Source: Phycisphaerales bacterium (GTDB lineage: Bacteria > Planctomycetota > Phycisphaerae > WQYP01). Taken from it: a DNA stretch of 64,000 nt. The notes under the pieces were generated by a model, which did not search any database, was not told the DNA's origin, and worked only from the letters and a program-made list of their open reading frames with translations. Shown here in pieces: positions 21,309 to 45,374 of the stretch (positions are counted from its first letter, which is position 1; every line of letters starts with the position of its first letter). The stretch covers positions 1 to 64,000 of the forward strand of contig DAIDJN010000073.1 in assembly GCA_027451365.1 (NCBI GenBank), in the 5' to 3' direction. Position numbers and translations under genes: made by a program.

Positions 21309-22931
21309 TCAGTTGTCGGGGTAACGGCTGCTCCGCACATCGGACCAATCAAGGCCAAATCGAAAAAGATATTTACGCAGACGGTCCGCGTCATTTGACA
21401 CCTTTTTCCTGGTGCGCGAGGCTGAATAAAGTCTTCGGCCGGCATCGGACAAGCTATCGGCCTGGCGGCATATTTCAATTACACCCCGCAACTGCAGACG
21501 ATCAAACAGATCAATGGCTTCAAGTTTTTCCGCCGGAAAAAACGATGCCAACAGATCGCGATTGGCGCATCCGTCTTCACCTTTGACGATCCACTGCTTT
21601 TCCAGTCGAAGAATTTCCTTTTCCACAATTTCCAGAGTGATTCGCCCGCCATCAGCGAGCGTCCCCATGCGATTGATGCTGGCATTCAAATCACGAAAAT
21701 TCCCCGCCCAAGCCCCGGCTGGGGATTTGGCAAAACTGATGAATCGCTGGCGAGCTTCCCTGCTGAATGTCACGTTATTGTTCTGGCGCAGGGCAAACTG
21801 ATCAAGTTCAAAGTCTATATTGGGTTCAATATCTTCAGGCCGCTGGCGAAGCGCTGGCAGACGGAAGGTCCACAAATTAATCCGCGAAAACAGATCTTCG
21901 CGAAAGCCGCCGGATTGGACGTGAGTCTGCAAATCCCGATTGGTGCCGGCAATAAGCTGGAAATCGCTTTTGGATTCTTCATCCGCGCCGACGGGCAAAA
22001 ATCGCTTTTCTTCCAGCGCGTGCAGCAGCATGGCTTGTTCGTCCGGGCCAAGCTCACCGATTTCGTCCAGAAATAATATGCCATTGTCCGCGGCGCGCAA
22101 CAAACCGGGTCGCGCAGACATGGCTCCCGTATACGCCCCTTTCACGTGGCCGAAAAGGGTGGACATGGCGGCATCGCCGCGCAATGTGGCACAGTTAATT
22201 TCCACGAAAGGTCCAGCGATTTGTCTGCGGCTTTTTTTAAGATCATAAATGCGCCGCGCCAGTTGTGATTTGCCAGCTCCGGTCGGTCCCATTAACAGGA
22301 GCGGGGCCTTGGAGGCAATGGCCACATGTTCGATCTCCTCCATCAGTTTATTGAAAGGAGCATTGAGGGTTTTTATTCCCCCTTTCAAAAAAGCCAGCCC
22401 CTCTTTCTTTTCCTGCTGGAATCGCGAGGCAATGCGATCGTAACGCGACAGGTCCAGATCAATAATCGAAAAAGTACCAGGATCTCCGGTGCGATGGCTG
22501 GAAGGCGGGGCTGTTTGCAGCAGTTTGCCGGGAAGATAATGGGCTTCAGTCAGAAGAAACAGACATATCTGAGCCACATGCGTGCCTGTACTTATGTGAA
22601 TGTAATATTCTTCATGTTGAGCATCAAAAGGATAAGCGCGGGCGAAATCATGCAGGGCGCTGTAGACCTCCTGAAAATCCCAAGGATCGGCTAATTCGCA
22701 CAAATGAGCGTTTACCTGCGTTTCCGGAGAAATACCCTGAATATCTTCCACAACCTGCGCGAAAAGTTTGCCAAATTTTTTCTGGGTTAACAGTTCAAGA
22801 CGATCCACCAGCAAATCTTCGTGTCGGCACAGCGAAACGGTTGGCCGCCAGCGCTCCCAACGTTCAGGGCCGCCCCCCGTGTCCAACACCGCGCCCAGAA
22901 AACCGATGACCACTGTCTTCTTCTTATTCAT
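21309..22931 (-). CDS. rtcR: RNA repair transcriptional activator RtcR (CARF + sigma54 AAA+)
   Basis: N-terminal RWERWRPTVSL, DPWDFQEVY, HISTGTHVAQIC; Walker A GPTGAGKS; GAYTGA; LFLDEIGE; C-terminal NDADRLRKYL. Confidence 0.96.
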   Translation of the reverse strand: MNKKKTVVIGFLGAVLDTGGGPERWERWRPTVSLCRHEDLLVDRLELLTQKKFGKLFAQVVEDIQGISPETQVNAHLCELADPWDFQEVYSALHDFARAYPFDAQHEEYYIHISTGTHVAQICLFLLTEAHYLPGKLLQTAPPSSHRTGDPGTFSIIDLDLSRYDRIASRFQQEKKEGLAFLKGGIKTLNAPFNKLMEEIEHVAIASKAPLLLMGPTGAGKSQLARRIYDLKKSRRQIAGPFVEINCATLRGDAAMSTLFGHVKGAYTGAMSARPGLLRAADNGILFLDEIGELGPDEQAMLLHALEEKRFLPVGADEESKSDFQLIAGTNRDLQTHVQSGGFREDLFSRINLWTFRLPALRQRPEDIEPNIDFELDQFALRQNNNVTFSREARQRFISFAKSPAGAWAGNFRDLNASINRMGTLADGGRITLEIVEKEILRLEKQWIVKGEDGCANRDLLASFFPAEKLEAIDLFDRLQLRGVIEICRQADSLSDAGRRLYSASRTRKKVSNDADRLRKYLFRFGLDWSDVRSSRYPDN

Positions 22932-22964
22932 ATATTATATGATAGCATTTTATTATATAAGATA
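22931..22964. promoter_or_regulatory. Putative RtcR upstream activating sequence
   Basis: 14-bp inverted repeat TATATTATATGATA-N6-TATTATATAAGATA (12/14 match), about 115-150 bp upstream of the sigma54 site and abutting the rtcR start. Confidence 0.55.
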
Positions 22965-23077
22965 GTACTGCGCCGTTCCCGGATAATCCGATTTTTCGTT
23001 ATGGCCGGCAACTTTATGTTAGATAACGCGTTATTTATACAGCAGTTATAATTTTTTTACTTTCAACATTCACGCTC

Positions 23078-23093
23078 TGGCATCGGTTGTGCT
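23078..23093 (+). promoter_or_regulatory. Sigma54 (-24/-12) promoter of the rsr-Y RNA-rtcBA operon
   Basis: TGGCATCGGTTGTGCT matches TGGCACG-N4-TTGCW with exact GG-N10-GC spacing; predicted +1 near 23104. Confidence 0.85.
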
Positions 23094-23109
23094 TTAACGT
23101 ATTGCGTCT

Positions 23110-23152
23110 GGTGGAATGCTGCGGCAAAGGTTGCCGCTGGCGATTGTCCACC
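23110..23152 (+). promoter_or_regulatory. Y-RNA-like bulged stem in the rsr 5' leader
   Basis: GGTGGA-ATGC-T-GCGGCAA-AGG-TTGCCGC-TGGCGA-TTG-TCCACC: same outer stem/ATGC...TTG/inner stem layout as the four downstream Y-RNA-like elements. Confidence 0.55.
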
Positions 23153-23200
23153 GCATGGCTTATCCGCAACAGCCGGATATTAAACCAAGGAGACTTCACC

Positions 23201-24769
23201 ATGGCCAACAAGACACTTTTTGAATCAACCATGGGCGCATTGATTCGGCCGACCGATGCACTGAACAGCGAAGGTTCACCGGCTTATGCATTTTCGCCCA
23301 AACAGATGCTGGCCCAATATGCCGCAACCGGCTGTATGAACGATACGTTTTATGCCACGGGTCAGGACCAACTGACGACGGTTCTGAAATTGTGCGCCGC
23401 GGTTGATCCGGAATTTATCGCCCGTACGGCGTTGTTCTGCAGAAGCCGCGGCCACATGAAAGATATGCCCGCACTGTTGTGCGCGATATTGTCTGTTCGC
23501 GGGCCGGGACTTTTGGCCGATATTTTCGACCGGGTGATTGATTCACCTAAAATGCTCCGCAACTTTGTGCAGATTATGCGATCCGGAACGGTTGGGCGGA
23601 AATCTTTGGGAACGCTTCCCAAGCGGCTCGTTGTGGCGTGGCTGGAAAGCCGCAGCGACGATTCCTTGTTTTGCGGCTCCGTCGGGCAGGACCCCTCGTT
23701 GGCGGATATTATTCGGATGGTTCACCCCAAGCCGGAAACGGCCTCTCGTAAAGCGATGTTCGGCTACCTGATCGGTCGCCCTTACACCGCCGCAGACCTG
23801 CCGACAATTGTTCAGGCCTATGAGGCGTTCAAGGCGGACCAGACTTCGGCAATGCCGGAGGTTCCGTTCCAGATGCTCACATCGCTGAAACTCTCCGATG
23901 CGCAATGGCGAGCCATTGCCGTGAGCGGATCCTGGCAGATGACGCGAATGAACCTGAACACCTTTGCCCGGCACAATGTGTTTGCCTGCGAACGGACGAC
24001 CGAGGCCATTGCACAGAAACTCCGTTCGCCCGAACTGATCGCCAAAGCTCGAGTGCTGCCATACCAGCTTATGGCGGCTTATACGGGCATCGGCCCCGAG
24101 GTTCCGGCCGTCGTACGCGAGGCCCTGCAGGATGCAATGGAAGCCGCGATTGACAATGTACCGGTCATCGACGGCAAGGTTTACATTTGTCCGGATATTT
24201 CACGGTCAATGCACTCGCCCATTACCGGTGTACGCACCGGGGGAACCACGACCGTGCGATGTGTGGACGTGGCGGCGTTAATTACCGCCGCCATTGTACG
24301 TAAAAATCCGCGATCCGATGTTCTGGCATTTGAAACCACCGTTGTGCCGGTTGACTACAACCCGCGCGACGCCGTGCTGACGAACGCTGGAAAATTTTCC
24401 AGTCTTCCCGCGGGCGGCACCAACTGCTCGGCACCGCTGGTGGAATTGAACCGCCGCAGCGCATCGGGCGATCTGGTAATCTATGTGTCGGACAACGAAA
24501 GCTGGATTGATTCGCCGCATTATGGCCGCTTTGGTGGAAGCCGCACTGAGACCATGAATCAGTGGGCAATTTTCAAGCGGCGTAACCCGGCGGCGAAGAT
24601 GGTCTGCATTGACCTGCAACCGAACGCCACGACACAGGGCGTGGAACGGGCTGACATTTTGAATATTGGCGGGTTTTCTGACCAGGTATTCGAAGTTATC
24701 ACAGCTTTTGTCGCCGGTACACTGGCCGCGGATCACTGGATTGGCGTTATCGACGCCGTAAGTTTGTAG
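23201..24769 (+). CDS. rsr: Ro60-related protein Rsr (TROVE + vWA domain)
   Basis: AGGAG SD before ATG 23201; LAQYAATGC, MKDMPALL, MLRNFVQIMRSG, RMNLNTFARH, vWA DISRSM, GGTNCS, VSDNESW, IGGFSD. Confidence 0.95.
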   Translation: MANKTLFESTMGALIRPTDALNSEGSPAYAFSPKQMLAQYAATGCMNDTFYATGQDQLTTVLKLCAAVDPEFIARTALFCRSRGHMKDMPALLCAILSVRGPGLLADIFDRVIDSPKMLRNFVQIMRSGTVGRKSLGTLPKRLVVAWLESRSDDSLFCGSVGQDPSLADIIRMVHPKPETASRKAMFGYLIGRPYTAADLPTIVQAYEAFKADQTSAMPEVPFQMLTSLKLSDAQWRAIAVSGSWQMTRMNLNTFARHNVFACERTTEAIAQKLRSPELIAKARVLPYQLMAAYTGIGPEVPAVVREALQDAMEAAIDNVPVIDGKVYICPDISRSMHSPITGVRTGGTTTVRCVDVAALITAAIVRKNPRSDVLAFETTVVPVDYNPRDAVLTNAGKFSSLPAGGTNCSAPLVELNRRSASGDLVIYVSDNESWIDSPHYGRFGGSRTETMNQWAIFKRRNPAAKMVCIDLQPNATTQGVERADILNIGGFSDQVFEVITAFVAGTLAADHWIGVIDAVSL

Positions 24770-24778
24770 AATTGTATC

Positions 24779-24862
24779 GCCAAGCCTGCGCAACGGAATG
24801 CCGATGGGATTACACACTGTCCTGTCATATCCCGCCGCTTTTGTCTGTTGCGCAGGATTGGC
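24779..24862 (+). ncRNA. Y-RNA-like element 1 (minimal, stem only)
   Basis: Outer stem GCCAA-G-CCTGCGCAACGGA / TCTGTTGCGCAGG-A-TTGGC; internal loop ATGCC / GCTTTTG; inner stem GATGGGAT / ATCCCGCC; no tRNA arms. Confidence 0.7.
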
Positions 24863-24938
24863 TTCCGGTTGTCCGCGTGCACGCCGGCCGGAAACGAACC
24901 TTGGTACCGGGTTGAAAACTGGAGATTAAAATGAACAG

Positions 24939-25063
24939 AGCAGCGGCGAATGCCGATGGAAGTACATTGGTAACCAGGAGGTTCGAATCCTGTCCCTCAT
25001 ACGTCGGCGACCAACCGGTCGCCCGACTATGGGAAAACTTCCATCATTTTTGTCGCCGTTGCT
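24939..25063 (+). ncRNA. Y-RNA-like element 2 (T-loop plus long hairpin, no D arm)
   Basis: Outer stem AGCAGCGGCGA / TCGCCGTTGCT; ATGCC / ATTTTTG; inner stem GATGGAAGT / ACTTCCATC; GGTTCGAATCC T-loop; long hairpin closed by GCGACC-AACC-GGTCGC. Confidence 0.78.
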
Positions 25064-25119
25064 TCATATACATGTTCGCCACTCATTGCTTTTCGAGTGT
25101 CGGATTGAATGGATCACTG

Positions 25120-25271
25120 GCGACAAATGCCGATGGAACTACAGATTCCCATTCTCGAGGCCGTGGGTTCGATTCCCACTCATTCCGGCAACCGGGCAGG
25201 TCCGAAAGGTCCGTCCGCGCCGGGGTGGTAGCTCAATGGTAGAGCACGCGTTTCATCACTTTTGTTGTCGC
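25120..25271 (+). ncRNA. YrlA-like Y RNA 3 with circularly permuted tRNA domain
   Basis: Outer stem GCGACAA / TTGTCGC; inner stem GATGGAAC / GTTTCATC; T arm GTGGG-TTCGATT-CCCAC, then a loop-closed acceptor stem TCATTCCGGC / GCCGGGGTGG, then D arm TA-GCTC-AATGGTA-GAGC (order T-acceptor-D). Confidence 0.88.
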
Positions 25272-25278
25272 TTTTGAA

Positions 25279-25420
25279 GGGTCGCAGCAGCGCGAATGCG
25301 GTCGGAATTACTTGTTCCGGGTTCGAGTCCCGGCGTTCTGAAAGCTCTGCTTCCGGGGCGTAGCTCAATGGTAGAGCGGTACCCACAATTTCGGCGAAAA
25401 TTGGTCGCCTGCTGCAGCCC
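25279..25420 (+). ncRNA. YrlA-like Y RNA 4 with circularly permuted tRNA domain
   Basis: Outer stem GCAGCAG-C-GCGA / TCGC-CTGCTGC; inner stem GTCGGAATT / AATTTCGGC; T arm CCGGG-TTCGAGT-CCCGG; acceptor CGTTCTG / CGGGGCG closed by a loop; D arm TA-GCTC-AATGGTA-GAGC; followed by T6. Confidence 0.88.
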
Positions 25421-25462: not shown

Positions 25463-26974
25463 ATGGCCTTTGTTGAACAGACTCCACCTGTTAGCGATCC
25501 GTTCATTGCCACCGGCGAGGCGACGGCGATTCTGCCGGCGCGCGATTCGAAACAAAAACCGATCACCGTCATCGGCACGGCGGCCGTTCGTCAAACATTT
25601 GATGCCATGTGCCTGACTCAGGCGCTAAATTCACGTGGCGCACCGGGCGTAACCGACCTGGTGTTGAATCCTGATGCGCATTGCGGCTATGGCGCACCGG
25701 TAGGCTGCGTACTGGTGTCGCCTACCCATGTGTATCCTGGCCCGGTGGGCGTAGATATTAAGTGTTCTATGAGCCTTTTGCAGCTTGATCTTCCCGCGGA
25801 GGCAGTGGCAGATGTTCGAATCCGGCGGGCGTTGATTGACGCCATTGTCGAGCGCACACCAACCGGCGCGGGCAAAGGACAGCGATCGGCAAAAAAAGGT
25901 CGCCAAGTTTCCGAAGATGTCGGTGTGCTGGTTGCCACGCAGGGAGCGTCGGCGGCGGTGTGCGGTCGGCTGGGCATACCGGAAAGCTGGACGAATTATT
26001 GTGAAGATTCATTTCATTTGGGGCATGATGATACAGTGGATTCTTTGTCACAGCGGTTGGAGATTCTGCGTACTGGCCAGCTAAAGAACTTTGCGTCCAA
26101 AATCAGCCAGCTAGGATCTTATGGAGGCGGAAATCACTTTGGGGAATGCGAGATTGTACATATTTTGGATAACCCGCGGGCCAGAACGATTGCCGAGCAT
26201 TTCGGCCTGAAGGAAAACCATGTGGCGTTTCTTTCGCATTGCGGATCGCGCGGATTTGGATTTCAACTCGCCAATAACCAGTTTCGATCGCTGCAGAGCA
26301 AGTTCGCGCAGTGGAGTATTCCATTACCTGGAAACGACCGCGAATTGGTTTATGCGCCGCTGGGAACGCCCGAAGCGGATGCATATATAGACGACATGAG
26401 TCTTGGGGCTAATTTTGCCACTGTCAATCATCTGCTGATCAATGCCCTGGTTCTGGAGGCATTCCAGCAGGTATTGCCTGGAACCACTGGCACACTGGTT
26501 TATTTCATCAGTCACAATATTGCACGCCGCGAAATTGTGGATGGCCACCTCGCATGGGTTCACCGCAAAGGCGCCACGCGGGCTTTTCCGGCAGGCCATC
26601 CGGGATTGAAAGGAACCCGATATGCACAAACCGGCCACCCCATTTTGCTACCGGGCAATCCGCAAGCCGGCTCAGTGGTCATGGTGGCTGATCCAGAGGC
26701 CGCTAAAAGCTGTTACAGTGTAAACCACGGCGCGGGACGACAGATGGGTCGCAAGGCGGCCCTCCGTGCGCTTGACCAGCAAACGATTGATGAATCCTTC
26801 ACCGCCTGTGACATTTTAAGCAACTGCCGCAATTATCCGCGCGATGAAGCGCCGGCGGCCTACAAAAATTTTGACGATGTTCTGGACAGTGTTAAAGGAG
26901 CGGGACTGGCCAGCGAAGTAGCGCGGCTCAAGGCACGTTTTGTCATAAAAGATGCCGACAAAGCGGATGATTGA
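25463..26974 (+). CDS. rtcB: RNA ligase RtcB
   Basis: PDAHCGYGAPVG, VGVDIKC, GGGNHF.E, HCGSRG, SHN, HRKGAT, HGAGR, DEAPAAYK; AAGGAG SD. Confidence 0.93.
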   Translation: MAFVEQTPPVSDPFIATGEATAILPARDSKQKPITVIGTAAVRQTFDAMCLTQALNSRGAPGVTDLVLNPDAHCGYGAPVGCVLVSPTHVYPGPVGVDIKCSMSLLQLDLPAEAVADVRIRRALIDAIVERTPTGAGKGQRSAKKGRQVSEDVGVLVATQGASAAVCGRLGIPESWTNYCEDSFHLGHDDTVDSLSQRLEILRTGQLKNFASKISQLGSYGGGNHFGECEIVHILDNPRARTIAEHFGLKENHVAFLSHCGSRGFGFQLANNQFRSLQSKFAQWSIPLPGNDRELVYAPLGTPEADAYIDDMSLGANFATVNHLLINALVLEAFQQVLPGTTGTLVYFISHNIARREIVDGHLAWVHRKGATRAFPAGHPGLKGTRYAQTGHPILLPGNPQAGSVVMVADPEAAKSCYSVNHGAGRQMGRKAALRALDQQTIDESFTACDILSNCRNYPRDEAPAAYKNFDDVLDSVKGAGLASEVARLKARFVIKDADKADD

Positions 26975-27015
26975 ATCACCGGAGCCGCAGACATTCTGAA
27001 AATTCTGGAGTTTGG

Positions 27016-28047
27016 ATGATCACACTTGACGGATCCATGGGTGAAGGAGGCGGCCAGATATTACGTTCCGCACTGGCGCTTTCCATGGCTACCTCTTTGC
27101 CATTCCGCATCGAAAATATTCGTGCGGGAAGACCCAAACCCGGGCTTATGCGACAGCACCTTACCGCAGTTAGGGCCGCCATACAGATATGCGGCGCCAA
27201 GGCCAGCGGCGTGGAAATGGGCGCACAATGCGTGGAATTCCGCCCCGGGAACATACAACCCGGTCCATATCATTTCGCCGTCGGCACCGCCGGAAGTGCC
27301 ACGCTGGTACTACAAACCATTCTGCCCGCGTTGCTGCTTGCCAACGGCCGGTCCACGGTGGAATTGGAGGGCGGCACGCATAACCCTTATGCCCCACCGT
27401 TTGATTTTCTGGAGAAATGTTTTCTACCGGTCGTAAACGCCATGGGACCGCGCGTAGATGCTAAATTGGAACGAACGGGGTTTTATCCCGCAGGCGGCGG
27501 AAAATTTCACGTAACAATTGACCCGGTGAAAAAGCTCACCCCGATTCACTTCACCGAATTTGGGCAAATCGTTCGCCGATCCGGACGGGTACTGATCGCT
27601 GGTCTGCCGAACACGATTGCACAGCGTCAGTTGGAAGTTCTTGGCCGCCGCACTGGCTGGGATGCTTCCTGTTTTACGATCGAAAATCTTCCCGAACGCA
27701 CTGGTCCGGGAAATGCCGTGATTCTTGAGGTGCAAAGCGATCATATCACTGAAATTTTTACCGGTTTTGGCCAGAAGGGCCTTTCGTCGGAAGCAGTTAT
27801 TGAACAGGTCGTCAGCCAGATGCGCTCCTATATCATGGCGCAAGTACCCGTCGGACATTACCTCGCCGACCAGTTGCTGCTGCCAATGGCCCTGGCTGGT
27901 GGTGGCACCATTTTGACGCTTCCGCTTTCGCGCCATTCCAAAACCAATATAGAAGTCATTCAAAAATTTCTTGCAGTCCCCATACAGGTACTTGCGCCAC
28001 GGGATCGCATTGCATTGGTCGGCATTGGAACGCCGCCAGCTATTTGA
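27016..28047 (+). CDS. rtcA: RNA 3'-terminal phosphate cyclase
   Basis: LDGSMGEGGGQILRSALALS, PGLMRQHL, GTAGS, GFYPAGGG, LADQL, catalytic His in SRHSKTN; start ATG 27016 after GGAG. Confidence 0.95.
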   Translation: MITLDGSMGEGGGQILRSALALSMATSLPFRIENIRAGRPKPGLMRQHLTAVRAAIQICGAKASGVEMGAQCVEFRPGNIQPGPYHFAVGTAGSATLVLQTILPALLLANGRSTVELEGGTHNPYAPPFDFLEKCFLPVVNAMGPRVDAKLERTGFYPAGGGKFHVTIDPVKKLTPIHFTEFGQIVRRSGRVLIAGLPNTIAQRQLEVLGRRTGWDASCFTIENLPERTGPGNAVILEVQSDHITEIFTGFGQKGLSSEAVIEQVVSQMRSYIMAQVPVGHYLADQLLLPMALAGGGTILTLPLSRHSKTNIEVIQKFLAVPIQVLAPRDRIALVGIGTPPAI

Positions 28048-43608: not shown

Positions 43609-45288
43609 ATGAATTCAGCTCGCTATAGATTCCCAAACATCCTCCGGCTGCCGGCATTTTGCCTGATGCTTACCGTCAGTTTGTCGGCAGTCACCGCATG
43701 GGCCGGACCGGTCTACCAGTGGTCCGTTCGTGTACCCGGATACGCCAATAAAAAGCGGGCATATTTATGGATTTCGCCGCGTTTGAACCGCGTGCGCGGC
43801 CTGCTGGTCGGTGTGCAAAATATGCTCGAACAGCCCGCGTTTGCCGACCCAATTATCCGCAACGCCTGCGCGAAATCCGGACTTGGCATTGTGTGGATTT
43901 CGCCCGGATCCACAGCGAACCATGATTCCGGCCTGAGTCTTGGCAACCAGTTCGGACCGCCGGCAAAAGCCGGTGCCGTGCTGCAACGGACCTTAAACCG
44001 CCTTGCCACCGTTTCCGGATATGGCGAAATTCGCTTCGCGCCCCTGCTGGTTTTCGGCCATTCCGCGGCGGCACCCTTTGTATACGGCATTCCGGAATGG
44101 AATCCGGCGCGGATCATCGCCATCATTCCGGACAAATGCGGCTTTCCATCACCCGGACAGGCACCGCTGCAACCGGGAATACCTGTGTTTCATCTGGAAG
44201 CCGAATGGAGCGAATGGGGCGCGGGCTGGGGTTCGTTGGTCAAATGGGATATCAGCGATTTTATTGGTGCCCGGAAAAAATGGCCCCAAAGCCTGACCGG
44301 CGAATTTCTGGATGCGGGCACCGGCCATTTTGACTGGTGCGAAAAATCCGCGCCGCTGGTCGCCATGTTCATTCGTGATGCGGCCAAATATCGCCTGCCA
44401 GTTCACGAACCGCTGAACGGCCCGATAAAACTTAAAACAATTGACCCCAAAACAGGATGGGTTATTGATATAACTAAATACGGCACGCCTGATACCCGTG
44501 CCATGCCGTACAGCGCGTTTCATGGCAACCCGGCGCACGCCTCCTGGTTTTTTAACCGGAAGCTGGCCCAAGCCGTCAACAATTACATGGTTCAGACTTT
44601 ACGCAAAAAGCCCCAAATGCTTAACTTTATTGTCAACGGAAAGCCCGCTTCGCTGGCAAAAAACGGCTTTGCCAGCATCGGCGCGCATTTTAATCCCGAT
44701 GGAGTCACTTTCAGCGTGCACGCCCGTTATTTGAACCACTCCCCAACCAGATTGCTTTGGAACGGCGGACCGCTAGGCCATGCCTCCAGTCCCATACAGT
44801 ACTGGACCATTGGAAGCGGCGCACTTAAACAGGTCGGTCCGCATACATTTAAGGTTTATCTGCATCGGGGCGGCGTGCGGCGGCAAGGGCCTCCCTGGGA
44901 ACCCTGGATTGTGGCCTACAGCCCGGGCGACGCACAATACCAATCCACCGACCGGCCCGCCCACATCTGGGTGGCGATTACCAATCATGCCGGCAAGCCG
45001 CAAACCATTCATTTTCCGCGTTTGGCCAATGTGCGATCGGGCGCTCAATCCATCCGACTTCACGCCACGTCCAGCCTTGGCCTGCCGGTACAGTTTTTTG
45101 TGGTCAGTGGGCCGGTGAAATTGGCGGCGGACAATCGAACACTGCAATTCACAACCATTCCGCCACGGGCGAAATTCCCCATGAAAGTCATTGTGGGCGC
45201 ATGGCAATGGGGCCGCGCCACGCATCCGCGCGTTCAATCGGCGGGACCAATTTACCGCAGTTTCTATATTGAAAAACGACCGGGATAA
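43609..45288 (+). CDS. Secreted hypothetical protein, alpha/beta-hydrolase-like with C-terminal Ig-like region
   Basis: Signal peptide (AWA); PLLVFGHSAAA nucleophile-like motif; GTGHF; C-terminal ATSSLGLPVQF.VVSGP. Confidence 0.7.
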   Translation: MNSARYRFPNILRLPAFCLMLTVSLSAVTAWAGPVYQWSVRVPGYANKKRAYLWISPRLNRVRGLLVGVQNMLEQPAFADPIIRNACAKSGLGIVWISPGSTANHDSGLSLGNQFGPPAKAGAVLQRTLNRLATVSGYGEIRFAPLLVFGHSAAAPFVYGIPEWNPARIIAIIPDKCGFPSPGQAPLQPGIPVFHLEAEWSEWGAGWGSLVKWDISDFIGARKKWPQSLTGEFLDAGTGHFDWCEKSAPLVAMFIRDAAKYRLPVHEPLNGPIKLKTIDPKTGWVIDITKYGTPDTRAMPYSAFHGNPAHASWFFNRKLAQAVNNYMVQTLRKKPQMLNFIVNGKPASLAKNGFASIGAHFNPDGVTFSVHARYLNHSPTRLLWNGGPLGHASSPIQYWTIGSGALKQVGPHTFKVYLHRGGVRRQGPPWEPWIVAYSPGDAQYQSTDRPAHIWVAITNHAGKPQTIHFPRLANVRSGAQSIRLHATSSLGLPVQFFVVSGPVKLAADNRTLQFTTIPPRAKFPMKVIVGAWQWGRATHPRVQSAGPIYRSFYIEKRPG

Positions 45289-45374
45289 TTTGAATATCGG
45301 ATGAAAGCGGCACATTGCCGCAAGCTGGCCGACAATGGGATTCACACGAATCATCGCGCCTGGTTGCCCCGCGC

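Follow-up and report, generated by a model that had tools for sequence, protein, structure and literature searches.

A Y-RNA-like stem module in the 5' leader of rsr: a candidate Rsr-binding operator in a Phycisphaerales bacterium

The 5' leader of rsr in a Phycisphaerales bacterium carries a short module that is built like the presumed Rsr-binding stem of Y RNAs, and this likeness is real and non-random. We suggest that the module is an operator which mimics the Y-RNA stem, binds Rsr and so exerts feedback on rsr; our rough probability for this reading is 0.45. Binding of Rsr to the leader, its competition with the Y RNAs and the sign and mode of the regulation are what we infer from the sequence. 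What would be new is a Y-RNA-type Rsr handle built into the rsr messenger, a plausible interpretation that gains support from the comparison of rsr leaders.

Results

The operon and the start of the messenger

The window, by which we mean the whole stretch of DNA analysed (64,000 nt, positions 1 to 64,000 of contig DAIDJN010000073.1), contains an Rtc/Ro RNA-repair operon of the Salmonella type that comprises rtcR, a promoter, rsr, four Y-RNA-like elements, rtcB and rtcA (Table 1).

Table 1. Features of the operon and of the rsr leader. The Rfam YrlA scores of Y2, Y3 and Y4 all lie below the gathering score of that family, which is 69.
Feature	Position	Strand	Evidence or remark
rtcR, sigma-54-dependent activator, divergent from rsr	21309..22931	-	Pfam RtcR 4.3e-83, Sigma54_activat 7.4e-49
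Putative sigma-54-type promoter	23078..23093	+	GG 23079-80, GC 23091-92; predicted +1 near 23104
Leader mini Y-stem module	23110..23152	+	Read from the sequence; covariance model R1 17.6 bits
Second leader hairpin, between module and Shine-Dalgarno (SD)	23161..23179	+	6 pairs, 7-nt loop
SD AAGGAG	23187..23192	+	8 nt before ATG
rsr, Ro60 ortholog, 522 aa	23201..24769	+	Pfam vWA_Ro60 3.5e-16, TROVE 7.4e-06
Y1, short Y RNA	24786..24855	+	Signature; R1 41.7 bits, but Y1 is in the R1 training set
Y2, YrlA-like Y RNA	24938..25064	+	Rfam YrlA 24.7 bits; signature; R1 25.8 bits
Y3, YrlA-like, with tRNA-like domain	25119..25272	+	Rfam YrlA 52.1 bits, E 2.5e-09; signature
Y4, YrlA-like, with tRNA-like domain	25286..25415	+	Rfam YrlA 55.2 bits, E 3e-10
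rtcB	25463-26974	+	Pfam RtcB 2.2e-100
rtcA	26971-28047	+	Pfam RTC 1.5e-78

The +1 of rsr is placed by the usual spacing between a sigma-54 promoter and its start site. From this spacing and from the same promoter form (TGGCAC-N5-xxGC), which also precedes many other rsr genes, we infer that transcription starts near 23104. No sigma-70-like or terminator-like site was found between the promoter and the ATG. A coding leader read from the in-frame TTG at 23087 was considered and rejected: this TTG falls within the promoter, and homologs begin at the ATG at 23201, the codon that lines up with M1-A2, which is invariant among 26 Rsr proteins. We conclude that the leader does not code for protein.

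Regarding close relatives of the locus, Rsr proteins related to that of the window share 44-64% protein identity with it, and none above 64% was found in 61 relatives, 45 genomes of the order, 401 genomes of the phylum, the species-representative collection and metagenome contigs. With the nearest Rsr only 64% identical, the module of the window cannot be followed in close kin or checked there for covariation. Among the DNA contigs of four runs, one contig of a strain variant (run X2) spans 22950-23341 and has four differences in 392 nt. These lie at 23003, 23052, 23075 and 23105, all in the rtcR-rsr spacer and upstream of 23106; one is 3 nt before the promoter TGG and another at about +2. The module, the second hairpin, the SD and the first 140 nt of rsr have zero changes, which for the module says little since about 0.4 changes were expected there. 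No RNA sequencing run holding the locus is listed.

Structure of the leader module

Helix 1 of the module pairs 23110-23115 with 23147-23152 in six Watson-Crick pairs, and a seventh, U-G, pair is possible. AUGC follows at 23116-23119 on the 3' side of the first strand and is succeeded by a single U. Helix 2 pairs 23121-23127 with 23131-23137 (seven perfect pairs) and is capped by the loop AGG; the 3' loop strand, 23138-23146, ends in UUG at 23144-23146. A sequence-only reading of this DNA had quoted the element as GGTGGA-ATGC...TTG-TCCACC, and indeed every letter is present and both stems are perfect. Its account of the surroundings is also borne out. The module begins about 6 nt past the predicted sigma-54 +1 (23110 as compared to a deduced start near 23104), and a second hairpin, in which 23161-23166 pair with 23174-23179, comes before the SD. 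The module does not cover the SD: its end at 23152 is 34 nt before the SD and about 48 nt before the ATG. The same reading had claimed that the downstream elements share this internal loop. All four elements exist, and Y1-Y3 have the loop in the form GA/AA-AUGC...UUG-UC/UU, but Y4 deviates with UUGG in place of UUG. Y4 also has a bulged C on the 5' strand of helix 1, which recalls the bulged helix of animal Y RNAs.

Folding predictions give the SD of the window a mean unpaired probability of 0.57, i.e. it is mostly accessible. In the minimum-energy fold, UGCU of the module pairs with GGCG of the 3' loop strand, and by this prediction the 'internal loop' of the leader may be smaller or tighter than in Y RNAs.

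We aligned 71 short Y RNAs of rsr loci (alignment A3). Members of this class usually stand first after the rsr stop codon, as does 24786-24855 in the window. They consist of helix 1, an invariant AUGC, helix 2 leading into a nearly invariant GACUACAU box, its partner GUCUC and then CUUG. The alignment shows no evident tRNA-like part, and the scan of the window gave no Rfam family for the class. A looser pattern of the apical box is present in 77 of 90 short elements. Y1 has no tRNA-like part and carries the GGA-AUGC variant.

Y-like elements at large were searched for with a descriptor made of a helix, AUGC, an interior, UUG and the second helix strand. In 186 rsr loci it picked out the Y RNAs very cleanly and gave 426 elements with at least six pairs, whose interior lengths peak at 40-59 and 80-130 nt, and the interior is shorter than 40 nt in 8 of the 426. 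The interior of the leader module measures 31 nt, as compared to the usual 45-60 nt of short Y RNAs, and the apical box GACUACAU...GUCUC is missing. Nor does the module have a tRNA-like domain with mimics of the T or D arm, the interior being a 7-pair helix with a 3-nt loop. With Rfam, 23090-23210 matched neither YrlA nor tRNA although E values up to 10 were admitted, and a wider scan gave no such match on the leader either; the best match, to Chloroflexi-1 (14.9 bits, E 0.72), is not meaningful. As bacterial Y RNAs do, the module lies on the same strand as rsr (+) and within a few kb of it.

These features bear on the possibility that the module is a fifth, minimal Y RNA, cut off the rsr mRNA as an Rsr-bound small RNA of about 45-60 nt that acts in trans and has no effect on rsr. 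For instance, it could cover the Rsr ring like a lid that has no tether domain. Small RNAs are known upstream of rsr in D. radiodurans, according to the account of that species in PMC4201824. The other Y RNAs of the operon must be cut from the same transcript too, the model of short Y RNAs described below aligns the leader end to end, and at many loci arrays of Y RNAs stand directly before rsr. Against this, the module lacks the apical box, which hardly varies among the 71 short Y RNAs of the alignment, an interior of 31 nt is below that of nearly all 426 Y-like elements, and no terminator-like or evident processing site follows the module. Moreover, the SD-adjacent forms found in other leaders (see below) have 3-6 pairs and are unlikely to be stable RNAs. 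We regard a minimal Y RNA without a role in rsr expression as unlikely. Note that it is compatible with the same Rsr binding as the operator reading.

At two signature positions the leader has minority variants. The letters before AUGC are GGA in the leader, and CGA in 314 of 417 Y-like elements as against GGA in 19 (including Y1 of the window). Before the 3' strand the leader has AUUG, a form found in 13 of 417 elements, where CUUG is the most common (289 of 417). In the passages concerned, PMC4201824 proposes GNCGAAN0-1G, near the 5' end of the Y RNA, as the Rsr contact; the leader reads G-U-G-G-A-A-U-G, and the C of the published motif is replaced by G. These two minority variants would suit an ordinary 5'-terminal stem-loop that protects the mRNA, or the remnant of a decayed Y RNA gene, unrecognised by Rsr today. 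The same can be said of the folding energy of the whole leader, which is not unusual (z = -1.09). However, the helices have no mismatch and the loop words AUGC and UUG are both intact, and the unchanged module of the strain variant points weakly in the same direction. The comparison with other leaders is more informative in this regard and is taken up below.

Chance and the covariance model

Could the resemblance have arisen by chance? A strict signature was defined as at least 6 pairs, GA-AUG[C/G]...UUG-UC and an interior of 8-60 nt; note that the motif definitions were fixed after inspecting the data. It has 13 matches on both strands of the 4,055,293-base genome and 4 in the reversed-genome control. 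Two of the 13 lie in the rsr locus and 11 elsewhere, at least nine of the latter inside open frames of at least 120 aa. From 11 matches in 8.1 million strand positions the probability of finding one in a chosen 97-nt stretch is about 1.3e-4. A looser first scan of the genome (772 matches, 268 in the control) was superseded by the strict signature.

Independently of these counts, a covariance model (R1) was built from alignment A3, i.e. from the 71 short Y RNAs of many loci, including Y1 of the window and excluding the leader. R1 matches the leader with 17.6 bits and an E of 3.9e-4 for 10 kb or 0.005 for the whole window (128 kb), although the calibration is rough. The leader is aligned end to end (model positions 1-66) with helix 1, AUGC, helix 2 and UUG in register and 22 apical model positions deleted. 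It is the third-best R1 match in the 64-kb window, after Y1 and Y2. The next one, at 45124-45166 (-), reaches 15.6 bits (E 0.022), and all others have 10.9 bits or less. This next match is an 8-pair helix with GA-AUGG...AUUG-UC within two open frames, 43609-45288 (+) and 44773-45354 (-), both without a Pfam match, and it is probably due to chance.

Pure chance could be argued for from the 11 other strict matches in the genome, the 4 in the reversed control and the 23 of a loose form. But the probability at this particular location is only about 1e-4, R1 gives an E of 0.005 over the whole window, and related motifs recur in other rsr leaders. A chance resemblance is, in our judgement, very improbable.

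Related modules in other rsr leaders

Loci with rsr were collected from relatives, the phylum, the species-representative genome collection, metagenome contigs and one extra phylum-level sample; the leader sampling spans few phyla. A mini motif, made of a 3-6-pair helix, AUG(C/A), a short linker that is A-rich in most cases, UUG and the second strand, adjoins the SD in 13 of 186 non-redundant rsr leaders. The background rate in the same loci predicts 0.33, and in 200 dinucleotide shuffles the mean count was 0.345 and the highest 2. The distance from the motif end to the ATG is 14-18 nt in each of the 13, which places the motif against the SD. Two of eight further leaders have the motif as well. 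Motif ends elsewhere are five in number, in four leaders: that of the window at about 47 nt and the others at 53-80 nt, of which at least two (L014 and L067) are upstream of the promoter.

The helices vary between lineages (GGA/UCC, CAGA/UCUG, CGGA/UCCG, UCGGA/UCCGA, AGGC/GCCU, UCGGC/GCCGA, CAAGGC/GCCUUG) and the loop letters are constant; the helix sequences covary across these leaders. The nearest analogue of the window's module is found on a planctomycete contig (L062). There a 6-pair helix 1 begins at the predicted +1 and is followed by a capped helix 2 of 7 pairs; the helix sequences are unrelated to those of the window, and the module abuts the SD. The sequence-only reading had proposed to align rsr leaders in search of conserved AUGC/UUG with covarying stems. 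The outcome is favourable in part: 13 of 186 leaders, 2 of 8 further ones and six leaders with a permuted form (see below) have the motif with differing helices, but most leaders are without it. No form of the motif is present in about 85-90% of the leaders examined. All in all, the comparison speaks for an association of Y-stem-like modules with rsr leaders and hence for the idea that Rsr acts on its own messenger.

This comparison also bears on whether the module is just a protective hairpin or a decayed Y RNA gene. All nine family relatives have a hairpin at the 5' start of the leader, whether the motif is present or not; the distribution of the motif on the Rsr tree is patchy; and decayed Y-like stems are seen at other loci, for example upstream of rsr in L084. 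All of this could fit a plain hairpin or a relic. Yet a sharp peak, with 13 of 13 motifs ending 14-18 nt from the ATG, is not expected of neutral relics, and SD-adjacent versions also occur in sigma-54 leaders that have no upstream Y RNA (L040, L045, L062, L202). We consider a stem-loop or relic that Rsr does not recognise unlikely.

Several further results help to judge the mini motif. In 17 of 186 leaders the final 60 nt contain the hexamer GAAUGC, i.e. 1.52 per kb as compared to 0.18-0.71 per kb in four controls. In five carrier genomes a pattern of motif plus SD has 11 matches as against 2 in the control and recovers four of the five rsr leaders, the fifth having a variant SD outside the pattern. 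Of its seven matches outside rsr, the one inspected lies inside an ORF. A second mini motif in the genome of L104 is likewise inside an ORF and was taken as chance. Within genomes, leader and Y RNAs show no clear co-variation of a shared closing pair; GGC/GCC leaders are found beside CGA/UCG Y RNAs.

As for the SD itself, in several leaders an upstream CUCC-type stretch can pair with it and would extend the mini helix to a two-tier stem. The predicted accessibility of the SD has a median of 0.22 in mini-motif leaders and 0.34 in the others (one-sided p 0.049, kin not being independent). This difference is marginal, and sequestration of the SD as a special trait of motif leaders was not adopted.

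A permuted form and the distribution of the motif

In six leaders (L002, L003, L004, L005, L010, L130) we noticed a permuted hairpin of the type UC...GA that is flanked by (A/U)UG and AUG. In the first four, which belong to the window's own family, the stem opens with UCG and closes with CGA, the 5' flank is AUG or UUG, the 3' flank is AUGC or AUGG, and 21 nt separate the end of the hairpin from the ATG. The distal part of the stem and the loop vary within this group of four. The arrangement recurs in L010 and L130, where UCC...GGA takes the place of UCG...CGA. The permuted form can be described as a Y-stem module that is closed at the far end of helix 1 and open at helix 2. According to PMC4201824, in the part that deals with the contacts, Ro60 touches mainly the 5' strand, so a permuted layout could still be read. 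The permuted class is statistically weaker, and without the UC/GA requirement there is no clear enrichment. Permuted matches in L028, L102, L103 and L114 used the start codon as the 3' AUG and were discounted.

On a FastTree phylogeny of 195 Rsr proteins no fewer than 17 changes are required to explain the 22 carriers of the motif, when near-misses (among them L052, L070, L093, L112 and L198) are scored as absent. Either the trait has been gained and lost often, or the strict definition is leaky or misses diverged forms. Inspection of nearest neighbours gives roughly ten clusters with the native form, three with the permuted form and the window in addition; kin are not independent.

Discussion

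How would such an operator work? According to our model, the first ~50 nt of the sigma-54/RtcR-driven rsr mRNA would fold as a minimal Y-RNA module that lacks the apical domain, and Rsr would bind this module in cis. The operon transcript would then carry five Rsr handles, the four Y RNAs and the leader. With the common CGA or close forms and with full domains, the Y RNAs would presumably bind tighter and take Rsr first, the leader handle being a minority and probably weaker form. When Rsr is in excess of free Y RNAs, it would occupy the leader and lower its own synthesis. In the window this could come about by hindered 30S loading beside the second hairpin, by changed 5'-end-dependent decay, or the effect could even be protection. 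The mode of action in the window is the weakest step of the model: with the SD predicted to be open and the module 34 nt away, simple occlusion is not evident. In 13-15 other genomes, where the site touches the SD, a steric block or a stabilised SD-containing stem would be the natural mode. That Rsr binds its own mRNA leader, as the earlier reading had proposed, agrees with the match in sequence and structure and with the related modules in other rsr leaders, but most leaders lack the motif and the SD is untouched in the window.

If this is true for the window, it may hold more widely. We tentatively suggest that Rsr controls its own translation via operators that mimic Y RNAs, with the Y RNAs as competing anti-repressors, and that this arrangement arose repeatedly, in at least two phyla and in three layouts. 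These layouts are a two-helix module at the 5' end (the window and L062), a tiny helix that abuts or stacks on the SD (Pyrinomonadaceae and several planctomycetes) and a circularly permuted hairpin (the window's family).

Short Y RNAs (YrlB of S. Typhimurium and M. smegmatis and Yrn2 of D. radiodurans, as presented in the relevant passages of PMC4201824, and our A3) are the closest known relatives of the module. They share with it the GA/UC terminal helix, the AUGC/UUG loop and a second helix, and like the module they stand on the same strand adjoining rsr. The leader differs from them in having an interior of 31 nt instead of 45-60, GGA instead of CGA and no GACUACAU...GUCUC box. Moreover, they lie between genes, whereas the module is inside the 5' leader of a messenger and is known here from sequence alone. 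In M. smegmatis and D. radiodurans, Y RNAs are located upstream of rsr and are processed from a precursor. The layout of Y-type modules between the promoter and rsr on one transcript is thus known, and it is similar to that of the leader module. However, the known ones are full-size, stable and Rsr-bound, and no role in rsr translation is described for them. With YrlA (Rfam RF02553) the leader shares the Rsr-handle part of the stem, but it lacks a T- or D-arm-like domain.

That a core of this size can suffice is indicated by a minimal mimic of Yrl2, a stem-internal loop-stem of similar size. In the experiments described in PMC12135203, such a simplified stem-bulge-stem RNA binds the Ro60 of the Thermus phage phiLo in the nanomolar range (KD ~17 nM). 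Unlike the leader, this mimic is an engineered probe with a CGAA motif, is bound by a distant homolog of Rsr and is not part of a messenger (PMC12135203). Full-text searches of the open literature found no report that Rsr or Ro60 binds its own mRNA or that an rsr leader contains a Y-like element, and term searches of PMC4201824, PMC9879122, PMC7790460 and PMC12135203 returned no passage of this kind. In the literature found, the passages on the level of Ro60/Rsr relative to the Y RNAs describe control of the operon at the level of transcription, by RtcR and damaged tRNA, and nothing further.

If our interpretation is right, there would be a post-transcriptional layer of feedback on rsr, by which free Rsr is held in step with the Y-RNA pool. 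Bacterial Ro60 would gain, in the rsr leader, its first proposed mRNA target with a defined site, and the module would be a natural minimal binding site of 43 nt for structural and affinity work. The comparative set of leaders would offer natural variants of Rsr recognition with varied helices, the same loop letters and a permuted topology. Among the motif carriers, Adhaeretor mobilis HG15A2 (L040) is listed as a named strain whose genome is complete.

Operators that mimic the main RNA ligand of a protein in its own 5' leader are well established for ribosomal proteins L1, S8 and S15 and for threonyl-tRNA synthetase; in these feedback systems the binding has been proven, and the operator either overlaps the ribosome-binding site or traps it. 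The rsr leader is like them in that it copies the presumed Rsr site (the contact itself being deduced from the literature) and in that competition between ligand and operator is expected. It differs in that the module of the window is a candidate site and lies 34 nt upstream of the SD; a module abuts the SD in 13 of 186 other leaders.

Other observations at rsr loci

A stem with 11 perfect pairs and GA-AUGC...GUUG-UC in the coding region of rsr in L042 (at about codon 394) was rejected as a further site. The stem results from the way in which two conserved peptides, VMTNA and LSSLP, are encoded, and a comparison with seven homologs showed no conservation of the motif at the nucleotide level. 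In many rsr genes the conserved MTNA codons give ACGAAYGC, which is near the Y-RNA handle.

The gene rsr is sporadic, being present in 9 of 45 genomes of the order (G000 included) and in 45 of 401 of the phylum; it was not found in the one other genome of the same genus, which is 93% complete. The Rsr proteins nearest to that of the window belong to other phyla, with the same 60-64% identity, and this points to a horizontal spread of the whole rsr cassette. Some rsr loci are on contigs titled Clostridia, Heliomicrobium, Rickettsiales, Actinomycetota or Enterobacteriaceae (L052, L061-L066, L088, L096, L103). In the sample centred on a Clostridia-labelled contig, the leaders closely resemble those from contigs with a Pyrinomonadaceae or Acidobacteriota label. 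This may reflect unreliable MAG labels or a movement of rsr loci between phyla.

There is also a second compact Y-like class, 600-1400 nt upstream of rsr (L084, L096, L099, L169, L182, L185, L192), at loci mostly labelled Pyrinomonadaceae. It has a 10-11-pair helix, GA-AUGC, an interior of ~40 nt with a hairpin of the UUGUUYGCAACGAAC type, and CUUG-UC. Finally, at six loci (L077, L079, L094, L095, L102, L200) a full-size tRNA-like element with a stem of the GGG-AUGG...UUUG-UUC type immediately precedes rsr. The 3' strand of the element in L094 stops ~20 nt short of the ATG, and by this placement larger Y-type modules can abut the SD too.
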